A model generated the notes under the pieces. That model did no database searches and had not been told where the DNA came from. It saw only the letters and a program-made list of their open reading frames with translations. From assembly GCF_001677475.2 (NCBI RefSeq), contig NZ_CP015229.1: a DNA stretch of 64,000 nt; one strand, 5' to 3'. Position 1 is the stretch's first letter; every line of letters starts with the position of its first letter. The stretch comes from Escherichia coli. Its GTDB lineage: Bacteria; Pseudomonadota; Gammaproteobacteria; Enterobacterales; Enterobacteriaceae. Shown piece after piece: positions 2,137-48,711 of this stretch. The position numbers and the translations under genes are program-made.

Positions 2137-3195
2137 TCATGCGGGGGTCTTTTGACGAGCTGCCGCGTCCTGGCGGGAGTGCTCAAGCAGGTTCTGCAAA
2201 TAATGCAGCGTGACTGCAGGGACCAGCGGCGCGATAGCCGTGAGATCGTTTTTCGCCAGCAGTTGACGTACCCGGGAAGCGGATATCGGCATCTCCTGGT
2301 AACGCAGCCGCTCAATTTCAACCAGTTCGATGGGCGGTGCGGAGATAGTCGGCGTTTCCAGCCAGTAGCGCATATCCTGGTTGTACTGGGCGGTAACGCG
2401 ACAAAAGGGTTCAGTACCGACAAAGCGGTGAGTTACACCCAGCGCGGGAGCGAGGTACTGACGGAAAATCTTCAGATCAATTTCGGTGTAACAATGGTTA
2501 ATGACGCTCTGTTCTTTAATGAAGTAGCAAGGGAACGTGGCGCGGGAGATGATGTATTCGGAGCCGCGATGCACAGTCAGGCGTGGAATATCGGCGGTGC
2601 CTTTTAACACCAGATCCAGCCGGTCTTCATAGGGGAAGCGTGAAGAATCTTCTTTGACTAAAAACAGATGCAACCAGTCGCACTGTGCTGCAGCCTGTTG
2701 AATCAGATAACGGTGACCATTCGTAAAGGGATTGGCGTTCATCACAATGCAGCCAATCTTATTCCCTGGATGACGAAATTTTTTCAGCGATTCGGCATAG
2801 CGTTTCAGTCGCGTGGCGCTGTTTTCCATCAGCACCATCACGCCGGGTACACTAGTCAGCGTGGAAAAACCGCACTGGCGGAACAGCGCCTCGTATTCGG
2901 TTTTGGTATAAATAAATAGATGCGTGCTGTGCCGCTCATAGGCGAGGTTAATTAGCTCGGTGGCTAATGTCAGCGCCAGTCCTTCACCGCGAACGGATTC
3001 ACTGATAGCAACGCATTTAATAATATTTCCGGCAATTCCACCGCACGCGATAAGCTTTTCATCGCGGGTTACGGTAATAAATACTTCGACTGTGGTGTCA
3101 ACGCTCAAATCATTTTCATGCAGGAATTGGGCGATTTCCGCCATTTTTTTATTTTCTGAACGTTTTACACGGGTGAAAATATCATTGCCGAACAT
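2137..3195 (-). CDS. citC: [citrate (pro-3S)-lyase] ligase
   Basis: ORF 2137..3282 (-); start placed at internal ATG (3193..3195) giving 352 aa beginning MFGNDIFTRVKRSENKKMAEIAQF... Confidence 0.85.
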   Translation of the reverse strand: MFGNDIFTRVKRSENKKMAEIAQFLHENDLSVDTTVEVFITVTRDEKLIACGGIAGNIIKCVAISESVRGEGLALTLATELINLAYERHSTHLFIYTKTEYEALFRQCGFSTLTSVPGVMVLMENSATRLKRYAESLKKFRHPGNKIGCIVMNANPFTNGHRYLIQQAAAQCDWLHLFLVKEDSSRFPYEDRLDLVLKGTADIPRLTVHRGSEYIISRATFPCYFIKEQSVINHCYTEIDLKIFRQYLAPALGVTHRFVGTEPFCRVTAQYNQDMRYWLETPTISAPPIELVEIERLRYQEMPISASRVRQLLAKNDLTAIAPLVPAVTLHYLQNLLEHSRQDAAARQKTPA

Positions 3196-3574
3196 AATAA
3201 ATAGTATCCTGAAGGTGCATGTTGTTATCGATTTGCAACAAATGTTGTTCGATGTTGCAAACTGATAACCTTTTATTTTCACTTGGGAGAAAGGGGGGCG
3301 ATCGAGGTATATCTTTTTCTCCTTTCGCTATACATCCTAAGGAGTATTGCAGCGTGAAATTTTGATTTATTTCACATAGAGTTAGTGGTTTTTTATTTAT
3401 TTAATGGTTTTAAGTTTTTTAATTAATGTAATTACGAAATGACCCGCAGGTTTAAGTGATTTAATTGATTTAATGAATAAAATTTGCCACGATTATATTT
3501 AATATCTATGTATTTTGATTCAACATTTTAATTACATTCGTCAAAGAGGCTCGGGACAACCCGCAAGGAAAACA
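3196..3574. promoter_or_regulatory. divergent citC / dpiB control region, very AT-rich with tandem GATTTAAT motifs
   Basis: 379-bp non-coding spacer between divergently oriented citC and dpiB; AT-rich by eye, contains tgatttaattgatttaatgaat around 3456..3480. Confidence 0.4.
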
Positions 3575-5233
3575 ATGTTGCAGCTTAACGAGAATAAACA
3601 GTTTGCATTTTTCCAAAGACTGGCATTTCCGCTGCGTATCTTTTTGCTGATTCTGGTGTTCTCAATATTTGTCATTGCAGCCCTGGCGCAATATTTTACG
3701 GCCAGTTTTGAGGACTATTTAACGCTTCATGTACGCGACATGGCAATGAATCAGGCAAAAATTATTGCTTCTAATGACAGTATCATCAGCGCAGTGAAAA
3801 CGCGTGACTACAAGAGGCTGGCGACCATCGCTGACAAATTACAAAGAGATACTGATTTCGATTATGTGGTGATTGGCGATCGGCACTCGATTCGTCTTTA
3901 CCATCCTAATCCGGAGAAAATTGGTTATCCTATGCAGTTCACCAAACCGGGCGCGCTGGAGAAAGGGGAGAGCTACTTCATCACCGGGAAAGGGTCAATT
4001 GGCATGGCAATGCGTGCCAAAACGCCAATCTTTGATGACGATGGAAAAGTCATCGGCGTGGTGTCGATTGGCTACCTGGTGAGTAAAATCGATAGCTGGC
4101 GTGCTGAGTTTTTATTACCGATGGCAGGTGTGTTTGTCGTGCTGTTAGGGATTCTGATGTTGCTATCGTGGTTCCTGGCCGCGCATATCCGTCGGCAGAT
4201 GATGGGCATGGAGCCAAAGCAAATCGCACGCGTGGTCCGTCAGCAAGAGGCGCTGTTTAGTTCGGTTTATGAAGGGCTGATTGCGGTGGATCCGCACGGT
4301 TACATTACCGCCATCAATCGTAACGCAAGAAAGATGCTGGGGCTGAGTTCCCCTGGACGACAATGGTTGGGTAAACCCATTGCTGAAGTGGTCAGGCCTG
4401 CCGATTTCTTTACCGAACAGATTGATGAAAAACGTCAGGATGTGGTGGCTAACTTTAACGGCCTGAGCGTTATTGCCAATCGGGAAGCTATTCGTTCAGG
4501 TGATGATTTGCTGGGGGCCATTATCAGCTTTCGCAGTAAAGACGAAATTTCCACCCTCAATGCGCAACTGACGCAAATTAAACAATACGTCGAGAGCCTG
4601 CGCACATTGCGACACGAGCATCTCAATTGGATGTCGACGCTCAATGGTCTGTTGCAGATGAAAGAGTATGATCGCGTGCTGGCGATGGTGCAGGGGGAGT
4701 CTCAGGCCCAGCAACAGCTTATTGACAGCCTGCGCGAGGCGTTTGCCGATCGCCAGGTGGCGGGGCTGCTTTTTGGTAAAGTGCAGCGCGCCCGCGAACT
4801 GGGGCTAAAAATGATCATCGTCCCCGGCAGCCAGCTTTCGCAACTGCCGCCAGGACTGGATAGCACCGAGTTTGCCGCCATTGTTGGCAATTTACTTGAT
4901 AACGCCTTCGAAGCCAGCCTGCGTAGCGATGAAGGAAACAAGATCGTTGAATTATTCCTCAGCGATGAAGGCGATGATGTGGTGATTGAAGTCGCCGATC
5001 AGGGCTGCGGCGTTCCAGAGTCTCTACGAGACAAAATATTTGAGCAGGGTGTCAGTACGCGTGCTGACGAGCCCGGCGAACATGGCATTGGGTTGTACTT
5101 GATTGCCAGCTACGTAACGCGCTGCGGTGGTGTTATCACTCTCGAAGATAATGATCCCTGCGGTACCTTATTTTCAATCTATATTCCGAAAGTGAAACCT
5201 AATGACAGCTCCATTAACCCTATTGATCGTTGA
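3575..5233 (+). CDS. dpiB: sensor histidine kinase of the DpiBA (CitAB) two-component system
   Basis: ORF 3515..5233; start at ATG 3575 preceded by AAGGAA; 552 aa MLQLNENKQFAFFQRLAFPL... with two TM segments and an HATPase C-terminus. Confidence 0.9.
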   Translation: MLQLNENKQFAFFQRLAFPLRIFLLILVFSIFVIAALAQYFTASFEDYLTLHVRDMAMNQAKIIASNDSIISAVKTRDYKRLATIADKLQRDTDFDYVVIGDRHSIRLYHPNPEKIGYPMQFTKPGALEKGESYFITGKGSIGMAMRAKTPIFDDDGKVIGVVSIGYLVSKIDSWRAEFLLPMAGVFVVLLGILMLLSWFLAAHIRRQMMGMEPKQIARVVRQQEALFSSVYEGLIAVDPHGYITAINRNARKMLGLSSPGRQWLGKPIAEVVRPADFFTEQIDEKRQDVVANFNGLSVIANREAIRSGDDLLGAIISFRSKDEISTLNAQLTQIKQYVESLRTLRHEHLNWMSTLNGLLQMKEYDRVLAMVQGESQAQQQLIDSLREAFADRQVAGLLFGKVQRARELGLKMIIVPGSQLSQLPPGLDSTEFAAIVGNLLDNAFEASLRSDEGNKIVELFLSDEGDDVVIEVADQGCGVPESLRDKIFEQGVSTRADEPGEHGIGLYLIASYVTRCGGVITLEDNDPCGTLFSIYIPKVKPNDSSINPIDR

Positions 5234-5882
5234 GGACGAAACGCCGCTGGCAGAGATGCATGCGGAATATATTCGTCACATTCCCGGATTCAGTCAGATA
5301 TTACTGGCGGGAAACCTGGCGCAGGCCCGAATGATGATCGAGCGTTTTAAGCCGGGGCTAATCTTGCTCGATAACTATCTTCCTGACGGTAGAGGGATTA
5401 ATTTACTGCATGAACTGGTGCAGGCGCATTTTCCCGGCGACGTGGTGTTTACCACTGCAGCCAGCGATATGGAAACGGTGTCTGAAGCCGTACGTTGTGG
5501 TGTATTTGATTATCTCATTAAGCCCATTGCCTATGAGCGGCTGGGGCAAACGCTAACCCGTTTCCGCCAGCGTAAACATATGCTGGAAAGTATTGATAGC
5601 GCCAGCCAGAAGCAAATTGATGAGATGTTTAATGCCTATGCTCGCGGTGAACCTAAAGACGAACTGCCGACCGGCATTGACCCCTTGACGCTAAACGCGG
5701 TGCGAAAACTGTTTAAAGAGCCTGGTGTGCAACATACGGCAGAAACGGTGGCGCAGGCACTGACCATCAGCCGCACCACTGCCAGGCGTTATCTTGAATA
5801 TTGCGCCAGCCGCCATCTGATTATTGCTGAAATTGTTCACGGCAAAGTTGGCAGACCGCAACGCATATACCACAGTGGGTGA
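5202..5882 (+). CDS. dpiA: response regulator DpiA (CitB)
   Basis: 226-aa ORF MTAPLTLLIVEDETPLAEMHAEYI... with receiver-domain motifs; overlaps the dpiB 3' end by 32 nt. Confidence 0.9.
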   Translation: MTAPLTLLIVEDETPLAEMHAEYIRHIPGFSQILLAGNLAQARMMIERFKPGLILLDNYLPDGRGINLLHELVQAHFPGDVVFTTAASDMETVSEAVRCGVFDYLIKPIAYERLGQTLTRFRQRKHMLESIDSASQKQIDEMFNAYARGEPKDELPTGIDPLTLNAVRKLFKEPGVQHTAETVAQALTISRTTARRYLEYCASRHLIIAEIVHGKVGRPQRIYHSG

Positions 5883-5922
5883 CATGAAAAAGCCGGAGGA
5901 AACTTGCCTCCGGCATGACTAT

Positions 5923-7308
5923 TTACTTGCCTGTGACCACTGCTGCCGTTCCTGGCACCATCAGCTCTGTAGCAACGATAACAATCACTAGCCCAACAAG
6001 CACCGGCACCGAGGTGCGTTTTACGACTTCAAATGGTGAGATTTTCGCCATCCCGGCAACCGCAACGACTACGCCAGAAACGGGTGATAGGGTACGACCC
6101 AGGTTTGACGCCTGCAGCATCGGGATAGTCAAATACGCCGGGTTAATGCCGGAAGAGTGCGCCAGTTTCGGGATCATCTCAACAAACGCATAAAACGGCG
6201 CATTGCCTGAACCGGTCGTGACTGCCGCCAGCATTGTCAGAATCACCAATACCAGCATCAGGATGATACTCGCCGAACCAAACGAGGTAGCAATAGAAAT
6301 CAGACTTTGAATAAAGCCGATGGTGCTAAGCCCCTGAGCGAATACCCCAGCGGCAACCAGCAGCATCACCACGTTAGCAAACGCATCTGCCATCCCGCGA
6401 TAAGCCACTTCCAGACCAGAGAAAACTTTCTGGGTATTAAAGCTGCGGATGAACTCCAGAATGGAGGCAATCAGCATACAAATCACCAGAATAGTGATGA
6501 TGTGTAATTGCGGACCCCATTTGCCGTCAAAAATCAGTACACCGATGATAGGCGTGAACGGCAAAATGGCATAAAACGCAGGAGCAGTGGTGGTGATTTC
6601 ACTGACATCTAACATTTCATGAGAGATGTGCTCTTTTTTATCCAGATAACGTTGCCAGAAGAAGTGGGCGATCGCCATGCCGATAATTGCAGCAATTGAG
6701 ATAGGCAGCGTCGTTTTGAAGGCGAAGTCAATCAGCGACATTTCGGAAGCCTGCGCCGCCAGCACCACATCCCCTGAAGTCGGTGCGAGAATAATCGCCG
6801 CCGGGGAGGCACAAATGGCAGCTGCTGCGCCACGACTGATACCAACGTTTACCATCACCGGAAACAGGGTTGCCATCAGCAAAACACCCAGACCGGTCGC
6901 GGAAGAGACGGCCAGAGACATCAGACAGGCGACAAAATAGGCGGCAATCATCAGCAGGTAAGGGGAGTTAATATACTGCAATGGTTTTGACGCCAGCTTG
7001 ACCACCATATCATTCGCGCCGATATGGGTCATGTAAGCGGCAAAGCCACACAGCATCATAATCATCATGCCGAGGTCGCCGCCGCGGCTCATTAGCAATA
7101 TTTTAACGTATTCAACGATATCCGTGGCGCTGTAGCCTGTTGAAGCCTGGCTGGACGGTAACACTTTGTGCCCCATAATGGCACTGATAATCAGCAATAA
7201 CAGGCCACCGACAAATAACACGCCAGTGGCGGAATACCCTTTAATGATGTAGCGAGCTACACCCACAATAACCACAACCCCAATAAGGAGTTCAATGAAT
7301 GTCAGCAT
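5923..7308 (-). CDS. dcuC: anaerobic C4-dicarboxylate transporter
   Basis: 461-aa polytopic membrane ORF MLTFIELLIGVVVIVGVARYIIKG..., uninterrupted. Confidence 0.9.
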   Translation of the reverse strand: MLTFIELLIGVVVIVGVARYIIKGYSATGVLFVGGLLLLIISAIMGHKVLPSSQASTGYSATDIVEYVKILLMSRGGDLGMMIMMLCGFAAYMTHIGANDMVVKLASKPLQYINSPYLLMIAAYFVACLMSLAVSSATGLGVLLMATLFPVMVNVGISRGAAAAICASPAAIILAPTSGDVVLAAQASEMSLIDFAFKTTLPISIAAIIGMAIAHFFWQRYLDKKEHISHEMLDVSEITTTAPAFYAILPFTPIIGVLIFDGKWGPQLHIITILVICMLIASILEFIRSFNTQKVFSGLEVAYRGMADAFANVVMLLVAAGVFAQGLSTIGFIQSLISIATSFGSASIILMLVLVILTMLAAVTTGSGNAPFYAFVEMIPKLAHSSGINPAYLTIPMLQASNLGRTLSPVSGVVVAVAGMAKISPFEVVKRTSVPVLVGLVIVIVATELMVPGTAAVVTGK

Positions 7309-8457: not shown

Positions 8458-8631
8458 GACAAATGAAATTTTAGTAAACTCTTTAAAATCAATGGGTAAA
8501 ATAATTAACATCAAAAATAACGCGACTTTTATCACTTTTTAGTAAAGTTGCACTGGACAAAGCGTACCACAATTGGTGTACTGGTAACCGACACAGCATT
8601 TGTGTCTATTTTTCATGTAAAGGTAATTTTG

Positions 8632-8841
8632 ATGTCTAAGATTAAAGGTAACGTTAAGTGGTTTAATGAGTCCAAAGGATTCGGTTTCATTACTCCGGAA
8701 GACGGCAGCAAAGACGTGTTCGTACACTTCTCTGCAATCCAGACTAATGGTTTTAAAACTCTTGCTGAAGGTCAGCGCGTAGAGTTCGAAATCACTAACG
8801 GTGCCAAAGGCCCTTCTGCTGCAAACGTAATCGCTCTGTAA
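8632..8841 (+). CDS. cspE: cold-shock-domain protein CspE
   Basis: 69-aa ORF from ATG 8632: [33 protein letters not shown]... (RNP1/RNP2 motifs). Confidence 0.95.
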
Positions 8842-8860
8842 GATACGTCAGCAAGAATTC

Positions 8861-8890
8861 AAAACCCGCTTAATCAGCGGGTTTTTTTTG
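8861..8890. terminator. Rho-independent terminator between convergent cspE and crcB
   Basis: Hairpin cccgct/agcggg (8865..8881) followed by a T8 run; A-run on the other side. Confidence 0.7.
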
Positions 8891-33019: not shown

Positions 33020-33043
33020 GCCGATGCCGGATGCAGCGTTTAT
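33020..33043. repeat. left half of a REP-like palindromic unit split by the IS insertion
   Basis: gccgatgccggatgcagcgtttat; its inverted partner gccgcatccggcagccg lies at 34480..34496 on the far side of the IS. Confidence 0.6.
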
Positions 33044-33566
33044 TGAACTGCACCCCAAATGTTGGACATAATCTGACATCTGAAGGTGCAGTTTATGAAA
33101 CATTCATTTGAAGTAAAACTTGCCGCTGTAAATCATTACCTGGCTGGTCATGCAGGCATCATTTCTACGGCAAAACTCTTTCAACTTTCTCACACCAGCC
33201 TCTCACACTGGATTAATCTTTTTCTTCTTCACGGTCCTCGGGCACTGGATTGCAGACACAAGCGTAGCTATTCTCCTGAAGATAAACTTTGCGTGGTTCT
33301 TTATGCTCTCGGGCATTCTGAGTCTCTACCCCGGGTAGCTGCCCGGTTTAACATTCCCAGCCACAACACGGTTAAAAACTGGATAAAAGGCTACCGCAAA
33401 TCTGGTAATGAGGCCTTTATCAGGCGCAGGAAGGAGAAAAGCATGACCCGTTCTGATGATACCCATGAAAACGAGGCAAACATGACGCCGGAAGAGATGA
33501 AGAATGAGCTGCGTTATCTTCGCGCAGAAAATGCATATCTGAAAGCCATGCAGGAGCATCTCCTGG

Positions 33567-34477
<911 letters not shown>

Positions 34478-39457: not shown

Positions 39458-39620
39458 AGAAAAAAGAGGGTAGCAGCGTTAACTGCTACCCTCGAAGATT
39501 GTTACCCAGCGTATTGCGGTTTTCAGGCCCGATGGGGAACGACCATCAGGCGTATAGTCTGTCCGTGCTACGTAACAATCGAGAGGGCTGGAATTTCCGC
39601 CCCTGGTTCTTGTAATTAGT
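39458..39620 (-). ncRNA. sroC: SroC-like sRNA in the gltI-gltJ spacer (GcvB sponge in E. coli)
   Basis: 169-bp spacer; minus-strand hairpin gagggtagcag/ctgctaccctc (39466..39493) followed by a U-run ending about 12 nt before the gltJ start; ends set from position in spacer and recalled ~163-nt length. Confidence 0.55.
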
Positions 39621-40524: not shown

Positions 40525-40842
40525 ATCCAACTCCTTTATCTTCTGCGTTAAGAACGCATGGATACCTGTTGTGAGTGTTTGTGTTGTTATCATCTGCAAC
40601 TTTATTGTGCAGTGTTGTGCCTGTTAGGTAACATTTAGTTTGGCTAAATGTAAAGATATTGCTGTTTTATTGTTTGTTTTTGCGAGTTGCGCCGCACCAT
40701 TCCGAAGCAAAATTCTTAAAATGCACTCTTTTGGTGCTACCCGTGGATTGCTGTGGTGCAACCGGGTTGTACTGATGCTGGTTCACGCTTTGCCTTGTAT
40801 AACAAAGCAATAGATGTGCCAAAGTTGGATAGGGGAATTTTG

Positions 40843-48007: not shown

Positions 48008-48082
48008 TGGCTGGGGTACGAGGATTCGAACCTCGGAATGCCGGAATCAGAATCCGGTGCCTTACCGCTTGGCGATACCCCA
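48008..48082 (-). tRNA. glnX: tRNA-Gln (anticodon CUG)
   Basis: 75-nt minus-strand sequence UGGGGUAUCGCCAAGCGGUAAGGCACCGGAUUCUGAUUCCGG...CCA; anticodon loop UUCUGAU. Confidence 0.9.
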
Positions 48083-48119
48083 ACTGGGTGCACTTACGAT
48101 GTAAGCGTCTTGAATAAAT

Positions 48120-48194
48120 TGGCTGGGGTACGAGGATTCGAACCTCGGAATGCCGGAATCAGAATCCGGTGCCTTACCGCTTGGCGATACCCCA
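48120..48194 (-). tRNA. glnV: tRNA-Gln (anticodon CUG), tandem copy
   Basis: Identical 75-nt sequence to 48008..48082. Confidence 0.9.
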
Positions 48195-48242
48195 ACAAAT
48201 TGGTTTGTGAATTTGCCGAACTTATTCGACACATTCAGAATT

Positions 48243-48319
48243 TGGTGGCTACGACGGGATTCGAACCTGTGACCCCATCATTATGAGTGATGTGCTCTAA
48301 CCAACTGAGCTACGTAGCC
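48243..48319 (-). tRNA. metU: elongator tRNA-Met (anticodon CAU)
   Basis: 77 nt GGCUACGUAGCUCAGUUGGUUAGAGCACAUCACUCAUAAUGAUGGGGUCACAGGUUCGAAUCCCGUCGUAGCCACCA. Confidence 0.9.
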
Positions 48320-48334
48320 AGATTGTTTCTTCGA

Positions 48335-48409
48335 TGGCTGGGGTACCTGGATTCGAACCAGGGAATGCCGGTATCAAAAACCGGTGCCTTACCGCTTGGC
48401 GATACCCCA
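48335..48409 (-). tRNA. glnW: tRNA-Gln (anticodon UUG)
   Basis: 75 nt; anticodon loop UUUUGAU. Confidence 0.9.
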
Positions 48410-48443
48410 ATAACCGGGCGGTGAACCGCTTACTCGAAGAAGA

Positions 48444-48518
48444 TGGCTGGGGTACCTGGATTCGAACCAGGGAATGCCGGTATCAAAAACCGGTGCCTTA
48501 CCGCTTGGCGATACCCCA
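48444..48518 (-). tRNA. glnU: tRNA-Gln (anticodon UUG), tandem copy
   Basis: Identical 75-nt sequence to 48335..48409. Confidence 0.9.
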
Positions 48519-48541
48519 TCCGTACAACGCTTTCTGGTGAA

Positions 48542-48626
48542 TGGTGCGGGAGGCGAGACTTGAACTCGCACACCTTGCGGCGCCAGAACCTAAATCTGGT
48601 GCGTCTACCAATTTCGCCACTCCCGC
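48542..48626 (-). tRNA. leuW: tRNA-Leu (anticodon UAG)
   Basis: 85 nt GCGGGAGUGGCGAAAUUGGUAGACGCACCAGAUUUAGGUUCUGG... with long variable arm. Confidence 0.9.
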
Positions 48627-48634
48627 AAAAAAGA

Positions 48635-48711
48635 TGGTGGCTACGACGGGATTCGAACCTGTGACCCCATCATTATGAGTGATGTGCTCTAACCAACTGA
48701 GCTACGTAGCC
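48635..48711 (-). tRNA. metT: elongator tRNA-Met (anticodon CAU), second copy
   Basis: Identical 77-nt sequence to 48243..48319. Confidence 0.9.

Follow-up and report, generated by a model that had tools for sequence, protein, structure and literature searches.

Why should the gene for a response regulator begin 32 nucleotides inside the gene for the sensor kinase that precedes it? The question is raised by the junction of dpiB (citA) and dpiA (citB), which lie on the plus strand of a 64,000-nucleotide stretch of Escherichia coli DNA (the window). A sequence-only reading of this DNA had called the overlap unusually long and had taken it to imply tight coupling of kinase and regulator synthesis, or alternatively a dpiA start set at the wrong codon. 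Here we argue for a simpler answer, which we hold to be likely as one joint reading: the overlap is genuine, correctly annotated and evolutionarily old, and its length came about passively.

The coordinates and gene identities in that reading hold: the dpiA ATG lies at 5202 and the dpiB TGA at 5231-5233, and both proteins match their NCBIfam equivalogs. The kinase gene occupies 3575-5233 (552 codons plus stop). Its product scores 1226.9 bits against NF011627 (curated cut-off 656), with profile positions 1-552 aligned to residues 21-572 of the open reading frame, so the true start is the ATG at 3575; it carries the Pfam domains sCache_3_2, PAS, SPOB_a and HATPase_c, and the K-12 annotation places dpiB at the equivalent coordinates of the locus. 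The regulator gene occupies 5202-5882 (226 codons plus stop), and its product scores 518.2 bits against NF007467 (curated cut-off 264), matching the profile from 1 to 226 with its own residues 1-226, with an N-terminal Response_reg receiver at residues 8-117 and a C-terminal HTH_64 domain at 162-226 in Pfam. The two genes share positions 5202-5233 out of frame, the dpiB codons beginning one base ahead of the dpiA codons, so that the same 32 nucleotides encode dpiA codons 1-11 and the dpiB sequence Asn-Asp-Ser-Ser-Ile-Asn-Pro-Ile-Asp-Arg-stop. Beyond dpiA, a GC-rich hairpin followed by a T-run on the minus strand (5892-5914) resembles, as a pattern match only, a terminator between the convergent dpiA and dcuC. 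A search of the window against Rfam matched sroC, a cspE leader and tRNAs, and returned no RNA family at the junction.

The overlap itself is already on record and is not new. It is identical in the RefSeq annotations of TUM1886, BL21-RIPL and K-12 MG1655, the junction DNA is found in 5416 of 5426 complete E. coli genomes, and a spacing of -32 for dpiB/dpiA is given in a published table. A paper on S. Pullorum CitA/CitB is silent on the overlap, and in a preprint on profiling of stalled initiation complexes dpiA appears only within a reference.

Could the overlap be an artifact of annotation, with the real dpiA start lying downstream and the overlap shorter or absent? Long overlaps do at times result from faulty annotation (Palleja et al. 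2008, as cited in PMC3887535), and the dpiA frame does contain a TTG at 5223 and an ATG at 5256. Starts farther upstream are blocked by an in-frame TGA at 5193-5195, 9 nt before the annotated ATG (5202-5204), which is the first start codon past that stop; between the TGA and the receiver core the only start codons in the frame are this ATG and the TTG at 5223-5225 (codon 8). We reject the TTG, which is CTG, TTA or CTA in 13 of 31 unique sequences and would in any case leave an 11-nt overlap. We likewise reject the ATG at 5256 (codon 19), the next Met, which lies past the beta-1 strand and the Glu11/Asp12 acidic pair. Alignments of solved homologues start at DpiA residue 5-6, covering the N-terminus, and the receiver match in Pfam starts at residue 8, so the dpiB stop falls within the beta-1 strand. 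Because that stop sits in codons 10-11, within the first strand of the receiver, any start that removed the overlap would lose this strand and the acidic pair and would destroy a working regulator. The orthologues were to be searched for a downstream Met that abolishes the overlap, and the result is negative: the ATG keeps its position, and is the first start past the in-frame stop, in 32 of 32 Enterobacteriaceae loci, from Escherichia, Citrobacter, Salmonella, Intestinirhabdus, Buttiauxella and an Enterobacter sp. The equivalog profile spans the whole protein, no downstream start is conserved, and codons 2-9 vary at third positions as a coding sequence in the dpiA frame does, not as non-coding DNA. 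The comparison with relatives thus indicates that the start annotation is correct, bounded by a stop 9 nt upstream and by the beta-1 strand six codons downstream. A mis-set start, the second suggestion of the earlier reading, is refuted by these observations, and we regard it as extremely improbable.

That the overlap is unusually long was rightly noticed. The other seven same-strand overlaps of coding sequences within 50 kb of K-12 around the locus measure 1 or 4 nt; in prokaryotes generally, lengths of 4 nt and 1 nt account for about 45% and about 15% of overlaps (PMC3887535), and lengths below 30 bp for more than 80% (PMC12548453). For gene pairs of the CitA/CitB type the median spacing is -3.4 nt, with quartiles of -7.4 and -0.4 (n=423; PMC10666635 Table S4). 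Given the relation between the two frames, the length of 32 nt is no more than what is expected by chance. Reading across dpiA in the dpiB frame meets a stop at 23 of 227 codons, from which we calculate a chance of about 0.35 that ten consecutive codons are free of stops. Between 5198 and 5231 the dpiB frame contains no stop, because codons 2-10 of E. coli DpiA include none that begin with AA, AG or GA, and the first available stop is the TGA at 5231-5233. Residues 2-10 of DpiA (T-A/E-P-L-T-L-L-I-V) permit no stop in the kinase frame in E. coli until Val10 (GTT) meets Glu11 (GAG), and the kinase therefore ends in an unconserved tail of 11 residues. Overlaps of this phase are expected to be long even where selection plays no part (PMC3887535), and we infer that the length here follows passively from the frame relation, no shorter overlap being available, and is not a device for tight coupling.

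The kinase tail itself behaves as such an extension should. The conserved end of the ATPase domain (...IPKVK) is followed by PNDSSINPIDR (5198-5230), and the Pfam HATPase_c match stops 13 residues short of the C-terminus. Across the 38 loci with an intact 3' end of the kinase gene, the tails beyond IPKVK vary in sequence and are anywhere between 1 and 12 residues long. The 32-nt overlap is found in 28 of these 38 loci, although the 41 loci sampled are kin to one another and such counts overstate the number of independent events. It is steady in Escherichia, Citrobacter, one of two sampled Salmonella subspecies, Intestinirhabdus and Buttiauxella, a stability that could reflect selection for the arrangement itself and not only for the stop. 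Other relatives have overlaps of 4, 8, 14 or 16 nt, or a gap of 1 nt. Three independent +1 frame switches have produced overlaps of 4, 4 and 16 nt. The hexamer TAATGA at 5200-5205 places TAA and TGA in the third frame, where a kinase frame shifted by +1 would stop and yield the common ATGA overlap of 4 nt; in S. enterica arizonae and the Enterobacter sp., a single extra A upstream makes the kinase end at exactly this ATGA. A tblastn search of plasmids with DpiA was uninformative for the junction, since every hit was either a near-identical copy from E. coli or a relative with less than 40% identity.

Within the overlap, selection can be traced to one frame. Mean entropy over dpiA codons 2-10 is 0.41, 0.15 and 0.76 at positions 1, 2 and 3, so variation peaks at dpiA third positions, which are dpiB first positions; this shows DpiA, and not the kinase tail, to be the target of selection. 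The exception is the kinase stop, whose TGA is built from the last base of the dpiA codon Val10 (GTT) and the first two bases of Glu11 (GAG). Val10 is GTT in 31 of 32 unique dpiA sequences, the sole GTA belonging to a locus whose kinase already ends at ATGA, and its third-position entropy of 0.20 is the lowest among 31 invariant fourfold-degenerate codons (median 1.58). The T of Val10 is thus under purifying selection; were it lost, the kinase would continue for another 38 codons and end at the TAA at 5348-5350. Wherever codon 3 is GAA in this small set of related loci, ACT is absent as the codon for Thr2.

The region just upstream of the dpiA start holds the longest near-invariant run in the 1443 + 693 aligned coding nucleotides: the 11-mer CCGAAAGTGAA at 5186-5196, 5 nt upstream of the ATG (the runner-up is 5 nt). 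The alignment covers 37 loci from Escherichia to Providencia, and the Pro, Lys and Val codons in the 11-mer have the most conserved synonymous sites among the last 250 kinase codons. We offer the 11-mer as a small new observation with a candidate function, as a putative determinant of dpiA translation initiation. Its GUGA could pair with UCAC of the 16S rRNA, at a computed -3.9 kcal/mol. Conventional signals at the start are slight. The duplex of the dpiA leader with the anti-Shine-Dalgarno sequence reaches only -1.8 kcal/mol, rank 43 of 45 neighbouring genes (-3.9 with another anti-Shine-Dalgarno length), and dcuR reaches -11.3. The A-rich start region (-20 to +15) costs 6.2 kcal/mol to open, the second lowest value among the 45 genes, and over the dpiA start no significant RNA structure was detected (fold of 5142-5262, z = -0.49).

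Do these features make the overlap a tight coupling device? Under such an arrangement, ribosomes that end dpiB at 5231-5233 would back up 29 nt and re-initiate at the ATG at 5202, and DpiA would be made essentially only alongside DpiB, in fixed proportion. Near-zero Shine-Dalgarno pairing is what one would expect of a start fed by delivered ribosomes, the arrangement is conserved with its stop position under selection, the invariant 11-mer beside the ATG could retain a ribosome after termination, and scanning back has a precedent at -38 nt in the coat-lysis junction of phage fr (PMC12548453). Against this, coupling in reporter experiments reaches its highest efficiency between -4 and +3 nt and drops faster with added overlap than with added spacing (PMC12548453), and in E. 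coli reporters re-initiation declines steeply as the distance grows (PMC10666635). The spacing of -32 lies outside the range of about -8 to +6 nt between stop and start that serves termination-reinitiation, and the usual spacing in the CitA/CitB family of gene pairs is about -4. Relatives dispense with the 32 nt for the other spacings listed above, and the open start region leaves de novo initiation unblocked, with no stable structure hiding the start as coupling by RNA unfolding would demand. The published optimum, the absence of an inhibitory structure over the start and the variable overlaps in relatives thus take away the support for the earlier claim that a long overlap implies tight coupling, and we judge such a device, like the view of fixed proportions that goes with it, to be unlikely. 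Some coupling between dpiB and dpiA is possible. Ribosomes probably reach dpiA in two ways. Some would load on the open region, independently of a Shine-Dalgarno sequence, and some would re-initiate after terminating dpiB 29 nt downstream and moving back, which would make the coupling loose and not tight. The missing Shine-Dalgarno sequence also fits a gene that relies on ribosomes from upstream. A mini-ORF of 14 codons that shares the dpiA frame (ATG at 5151 to TGA ending at 5195) was considered as an upstream coupling ORF and was rejected, its ATG not being conserved in Citrobacter.

A more elaborate possibility, which we consider a long shot, is a module devoted to re-initiation, made up of the 11-mer, the absent Shine-Dalgarno sequence and the selected dpiB stop 29 nt downstream. 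Here the 11-mer would serve as an unconventional tether, through pairing of its GUGA with 16S UCAC, for instance, catching ribosomes that terminate dpiB, and the captured ribosomes would be sent back to the dpiA ATG, fixing the ratio of regulator to kinase. In Citrobacter and Salmonella a run of eight A residues lies next to the 11-mer, where slippage could toggle the kinase between the 32-nt stop and the 4-nt stop. If true, the module would be a bacterial counterpart of the termination-upstream ribosome-binding site of caliciviruses.

It is also conceivable that dpiA has its own transcript, starting within the 3' end of dpiB and independent of dpiB translation, in which case the overlap would be irrelevant to expression. 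A TATATT hexamer at 5179-5184 lies directly upstream of the 11-mer, and a gene without a Shine-Dalgarno sequence is compatible with a very short leader. A consensus scan of the plus strand from 4900 to 6000, however, found no sigma-70-like -35/-10 pair, and the hexamer is not kept in Citrobacter, which has TATTTC. This explanation is therefore, in our estimation, very unlikely.

Taking the overlap as a real one of passive length, a suspicious-looking overlap in a well-studied two-component operon proves sound, and the annotated start of DpiA can be trusted. The dpiBA junction becomes a worked example of how long overlaps arise, in which the N-terminal residues of the downstream protein forbid an earlier stop in the other frame, and in which selection on a synonymous site, Val10 GTT, exposes the second reading frame. 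Should dpiA, with no Shine-Dalgarno sequence, owe its translation to the 11-mer, this would be one more small case in the study of how bacterial ribosomes choose starts and re-initiate without such pairing, and would bear on how the ratios of kinase to regulator are set.

Several known systems help to place this junction. One is dcuS-dcuR, the E. coli paralogue in the CitA/DcuS family, which has identical domain architectures and the same order of kinase then regulator on one strand, the regulator starting within the 3' end of the kinase gene. There the two genes overlap by an ATGA of 4 nt and the regulator has a strong GGAGAGG Shine-Dalgarno sequence, whereas dpiBA has the other frame relation, 32 nt of overlap and almost no such pairing. 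Pairs joined by ATGA or TGATG through termination-reinitiation (PMC6728339, PMC10666635) resemble dpiBA in being co-directional genes of one functional unit with overlapping frames, but they are defined by spacings of -4 or -1 nt and are efficient at about -8 to +6 nt; PMC10666635 Table S2 lists dpiBA as not forming a stable complex. The coat-lysis junctions of phages fr (-38 nt) and MS2 (-50 nt) share with dpiBA a downstream start that lies tens of nucleotides before the upstream stop, and the back-movement of ribosomes from a stop is physically plausible at such distances (PMC12548453). In the phages, however, coupling has been shown by experiment, while for dpiBA it is a possibility, and in MS2 an RNA structure hides the lysis start, whereas the dpiA start region is open. 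A further comparison is with the 'phase 1' unidirectional overlaps that arise by extension of the 3' end of the upstream gene (PMC3887535): their length is 2 modulo 3, nearly all are long because short ones require an ATT start (PMC3887535), and, like dpiBA, they carry an unconserved filler tail and end at the first stop that the codons of the downstream protein allow. Unlike phase 1 overlaps in general, dpiBA has its stop anchored in two invariant residues of the receiver domain (Val-Glu), with the synonymous T under measurable selection, and the overlap is therefore unusually stable over time.

The citrate-sensing sensor histidine kinase gene dpiB (citA; 3575-5233, +) and the response-regulator gene dpiA (citB; 5202-5882, +) meet at the junction ...CCG AAA GTG AAA CCT A ATG ACA GCT CCA TTA ACC CTA TTG ATC GTT GAG GAC..., where the dpiA ATG occupies 5202-5204 and the TGA of the kinase frame occupies 5231-5233. 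Since the ORF table ends the kinase at 5233 and places a 226-codon ORF at 5202-5882, the genes overlap at exactly 5202-5233, with dpiA codons beginning one base after dpiB codons. The 32-nt overlap reported by the sequence-only reading is thereby confirmed by the sequence and the ORF table, and also by RefSeq annotation, where it appears identically in TUM1886, BL21-RIPL and K-12 MG1655 (in the last, dpiB 652235-653893 and dpiA 653862-654542). The kinase matches the NCBIfam DpiB equivalog with 1227 bits, and because profile positions 1-552 align with ORF residues 21-572, the real dpiB start is ATG 3575; DpiA scores 518 bits over 1-226 of 226 profile positions, and both proteins carry the expected Pfam domains. 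Both the genes and their layout are those of the standard dpiBA (citAB) operon as annotated, and its junction DNA is found in 5416 of 5426 complete E. coli genomes. In BL21-RIPL (locus L002, NZ_CP083273.1), positions 1-700 hold secE and a partial hypothetical gene 5′ of dpiB, where citC would be expected, suggesting either that the region is rearranged or that the assembly was joined there.

The window comes from a strain other than K-12, with about 97.6% identity to it overall, although 5078-5314 match K-12 exactly. Relative to K-12 it carries a 1.4-kb insertion between djlC and hscC (33042-34476), whose two ORFs are of the kind found in IS3-family elements, an HTH-like orfA (33086-33616, 176 aa) and a transposase-like orfB (33868-34443, 191 aa), and it is missing the IS5D between gltI and lnt (junction near 40624-40628). 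Antisense inside citC (2137-3282, -) lies a 101-codon ORF that starts with GTG (2960-3265, +) and matches the description of nog1, a published overlapping gene that is likewise antisense within citC, with 101 aa and a GTG start (PMC4683798). Rfam matches above the gathering score are a cspA-type thermoregulator leader at cspE (8531-8889, +), the sRNA sroC (39458-39620, -) and seven clustered tRNA genes (48011-48711, -); no Rfam family matches at the dpiB/dpiA junction.

The overlap was also called unusually long, and it does exceed the norm. Within a 50-kb stretch of K-12 surrounding the pair, the seven other same-strand CDS overlaps measure 1 or 4 nt, lengths that make up about 15% and 45% of prokaryotic co-directional overlaps, respectively (PMC3887535), and over 80% of overlapping pairs have fewer than 30 bp in common (PMC12548453). 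For pairs of a CitA-type kinase and a CitB-type regulator in 1,695 species, spacing has a median of -3.4 nt (quartiles -7.4 and -0.4, n = 423), and the same study tabulates the E. coli dpiB-dpiA spacing as -32 (PMC10666635), so the overlap is uncommon yet already on record. Its length of 2 modulo 3 places it in a frame class where ordinary start codons cannot produce a short overlap, and almost every overlap of this class is therefore long (PMC3887535). Stops in the dpiB frame over dpiA make up 23 of 227 codons; ten stop-free codons in a row, with a probability of about 0.35 by our arithmetic, are accordingly unsurprising.

The alternative offered earlier, that the dpiA start is mis-set, is refuted by the upstream stop, the conserved ATG, domain integrity and the coding signature. 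A TGA in the dpiA frame at 5193-5195 means that no start is possible upstream of 5196. In a scan of related loci with one genome per species, which returned 41 loci, the ATG is unmoved in 32/32 loci from Escherichia, Citrobacter, Salmonella, Intestinirhabdus, Buttiauxella and one Enterobacter sp., and in these loci no other start codon intervenes between it and the in-frame stop; in Providencia and Moellerella an ATG lies one codon further downstream, measured against the conserved core. The sole other start candidate, TTG 5223, is CTG, TTA or CTA in 13 of 31 unique sequences and would still leave an 11-nt overlap. A start beyond 5233 would remove strand beta-1 and the Glu11/Asp12 acidic pair, the next Met being codon 19. 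In receiver domains this acidic pair binds the Mg2+ required for phosphorylation. The Pfam receiver match starts at residue 8, alignments with solved homologues such as 5lwk start at residue 5-6, and the dpiB stop falls within codons Val10-Glu11. Across relatives, dpiA codons 2-10 have mean entropies of 0.41, 0.15 and 0.76 bits at positions 1, 2 and 3, and this mostly third-position variation is a dpiA-frame coding signature, the opposite of what the dpiB frame would be expected to give.

With the dpiA start fixed, the kinase ends at the first stop that its frame meets. Such a stop arises only where a T closes one dpiA codon and AA, AG or GA opens the next; residues 2-10 of E. coli DpiA (T A P L T L L I V) permit none, and the earliest possible is at Val10-Glu11, only with Val as GTT. 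Val10 is GTT in 31 of 32 unique sequences, and among 31 invariant fourfold-degenerate codons no third position varies less than this one (entropy 0.20 against a median of 1.58); the lone GTA is in an Enterobacter sp. locus where the kinase already stops at ATGA. Without the TGA, E. coli DpiB would extend 38 codons to a TAA at 5348-5350; this run-on and the Val10 conservation indicate that the dpiB stop is real and selected. The DpiB tail that it closes, judged from the aligned loci, is not selected: after the conserved ...IPKVK, it reads PNDSSINPIDR, KNNDGTINAIDR, KSNDATYYDSDC, IIYGSSSNDSDC, KKQ, KEQ, IQND, I, KDLWQNH or IPNDKD. One extra base in the A-rich stretch 5′ of the ATG, at the dpiB end, puts the kinase in the third frame in S. 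enterica arizonae (L017, 2985-3004) and, at the same place, in Enterobacter sp. BIGb0383 (L043) and a Buttiauxella MAG (L038), which shortens the overlap to 4 nt in the first two and 16 nt in the third; the overlap is 8 nt in Providencia and 14 nt in Moellerella, and one P. rettgeri strain has a 1-nt gap. At the dpiB end, Citrobacter and Salmonella carry an A8 run (GTG AAA AAA AAC), like the slippery heptamer A_AAA_AAC, which E. coli is without. Broken dpiB and/or dpiA frames, either pseudogenes or assembly errors, occur at loci L027, L033, L036 and L042 (strains C. koseri NCTC10786, C. amalonaticus AUH_CA_2023_1, P. alcalifaciens BIGb0506 and P. stuartii NCTC11800).

That so long an overlap implies tight coupling of kinase and regulator synthesis is unsupported, for reporter literature, an open start region and overlap lengths that vary among relatives weigh against it. 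According to a recent review, coupling peaks at -4 to +3 nt, and more overlap reduces it more than more spacing does; back-scanning across -38 nt has been shown in phage fr (both PMC12548453), and E. coli reporters lose 80-100% of re-initiation at +38 nt (PMC10666635). The fold of 5142-5262 has z = -0.49, leaving nothing to unfold around the dpiA start, and opening -20 to +15 costs 6.2 kcal/mol against a median of 10.2, with only one of the 45 neighbouring genes needing less. Shine-Dalgarno pairing is -1.8 kcal/mol with a 9-nt anti-Shine-Dalgarno sequence (rank 43 of 45 genes) and -3.9 kcal/mol with a 13-nt one, solely from GUGA:UCAC. Such near-absent pairing would be compatible with a start that receives its ribosomes from upstream, and likewise with ribosomes loading independently of a Shine-Dalgarno sequence where the RNA is open and A-rich; a consensus scan of the + strand over 4900-6000 found no promoter-like site for dpiA. 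We estimate that any coupling is loose, partial at most. A 14-codon mini-ORF in the dpiA frame (5151-5195, +), running from ATG 5151 to the TGA at 5193-5195 and ending 6 nt 5′ of the dpiA ATG, was rejected as a coupling uORF: its ATG, derived from kinase Asn-Asp codons, is absent in many Citrobacter loci, so the mini-ORF is probably fortuitous.

The dpiB 3′ end also holds an invariant 11-mer, CCGAAAGTGAA (5186-5196, +), present once in the window and covering the dpiB codons Pro-Lys-Val-Lys. It is nucleotide-identical in all 41 loci from Escherichia to Providencia, except for one CCA in Moellerella, and among the 1443 + 693 aligned coding nt of 37 loci no other near-invariant run is as long (the next is 5 nt); the alignment was anchored on it, yet no locus is without it. 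Over the last 250 kinase codons no synonymous sites are better conserved than its three, it includes the dpiA-frame TGA and the GUGA that could pair with UCAC, and its end lies 5 nt from the dpiA ATG in Escherichia and 8 nt elsewhere. We infer that it is probably a cis-acting determinant of dpiA translation.

Among known systems, the paralogous dcuS-dcuR pair overlaps by 4 nt, against 32 nt in dpiBA, and its dcuR Shine-Dalgarno duplex has an energy of -11.3 kcal/mol, against almost none for dpiA. The defining spacing of termination-reinitiation pairs is not that of dpiBA, and unfolding-type coupling requires an RNA structure that dpiBA is without. The overlap instead matches a known class, in which the upstream gene is extended at its 3′ end to the first permitted stop.
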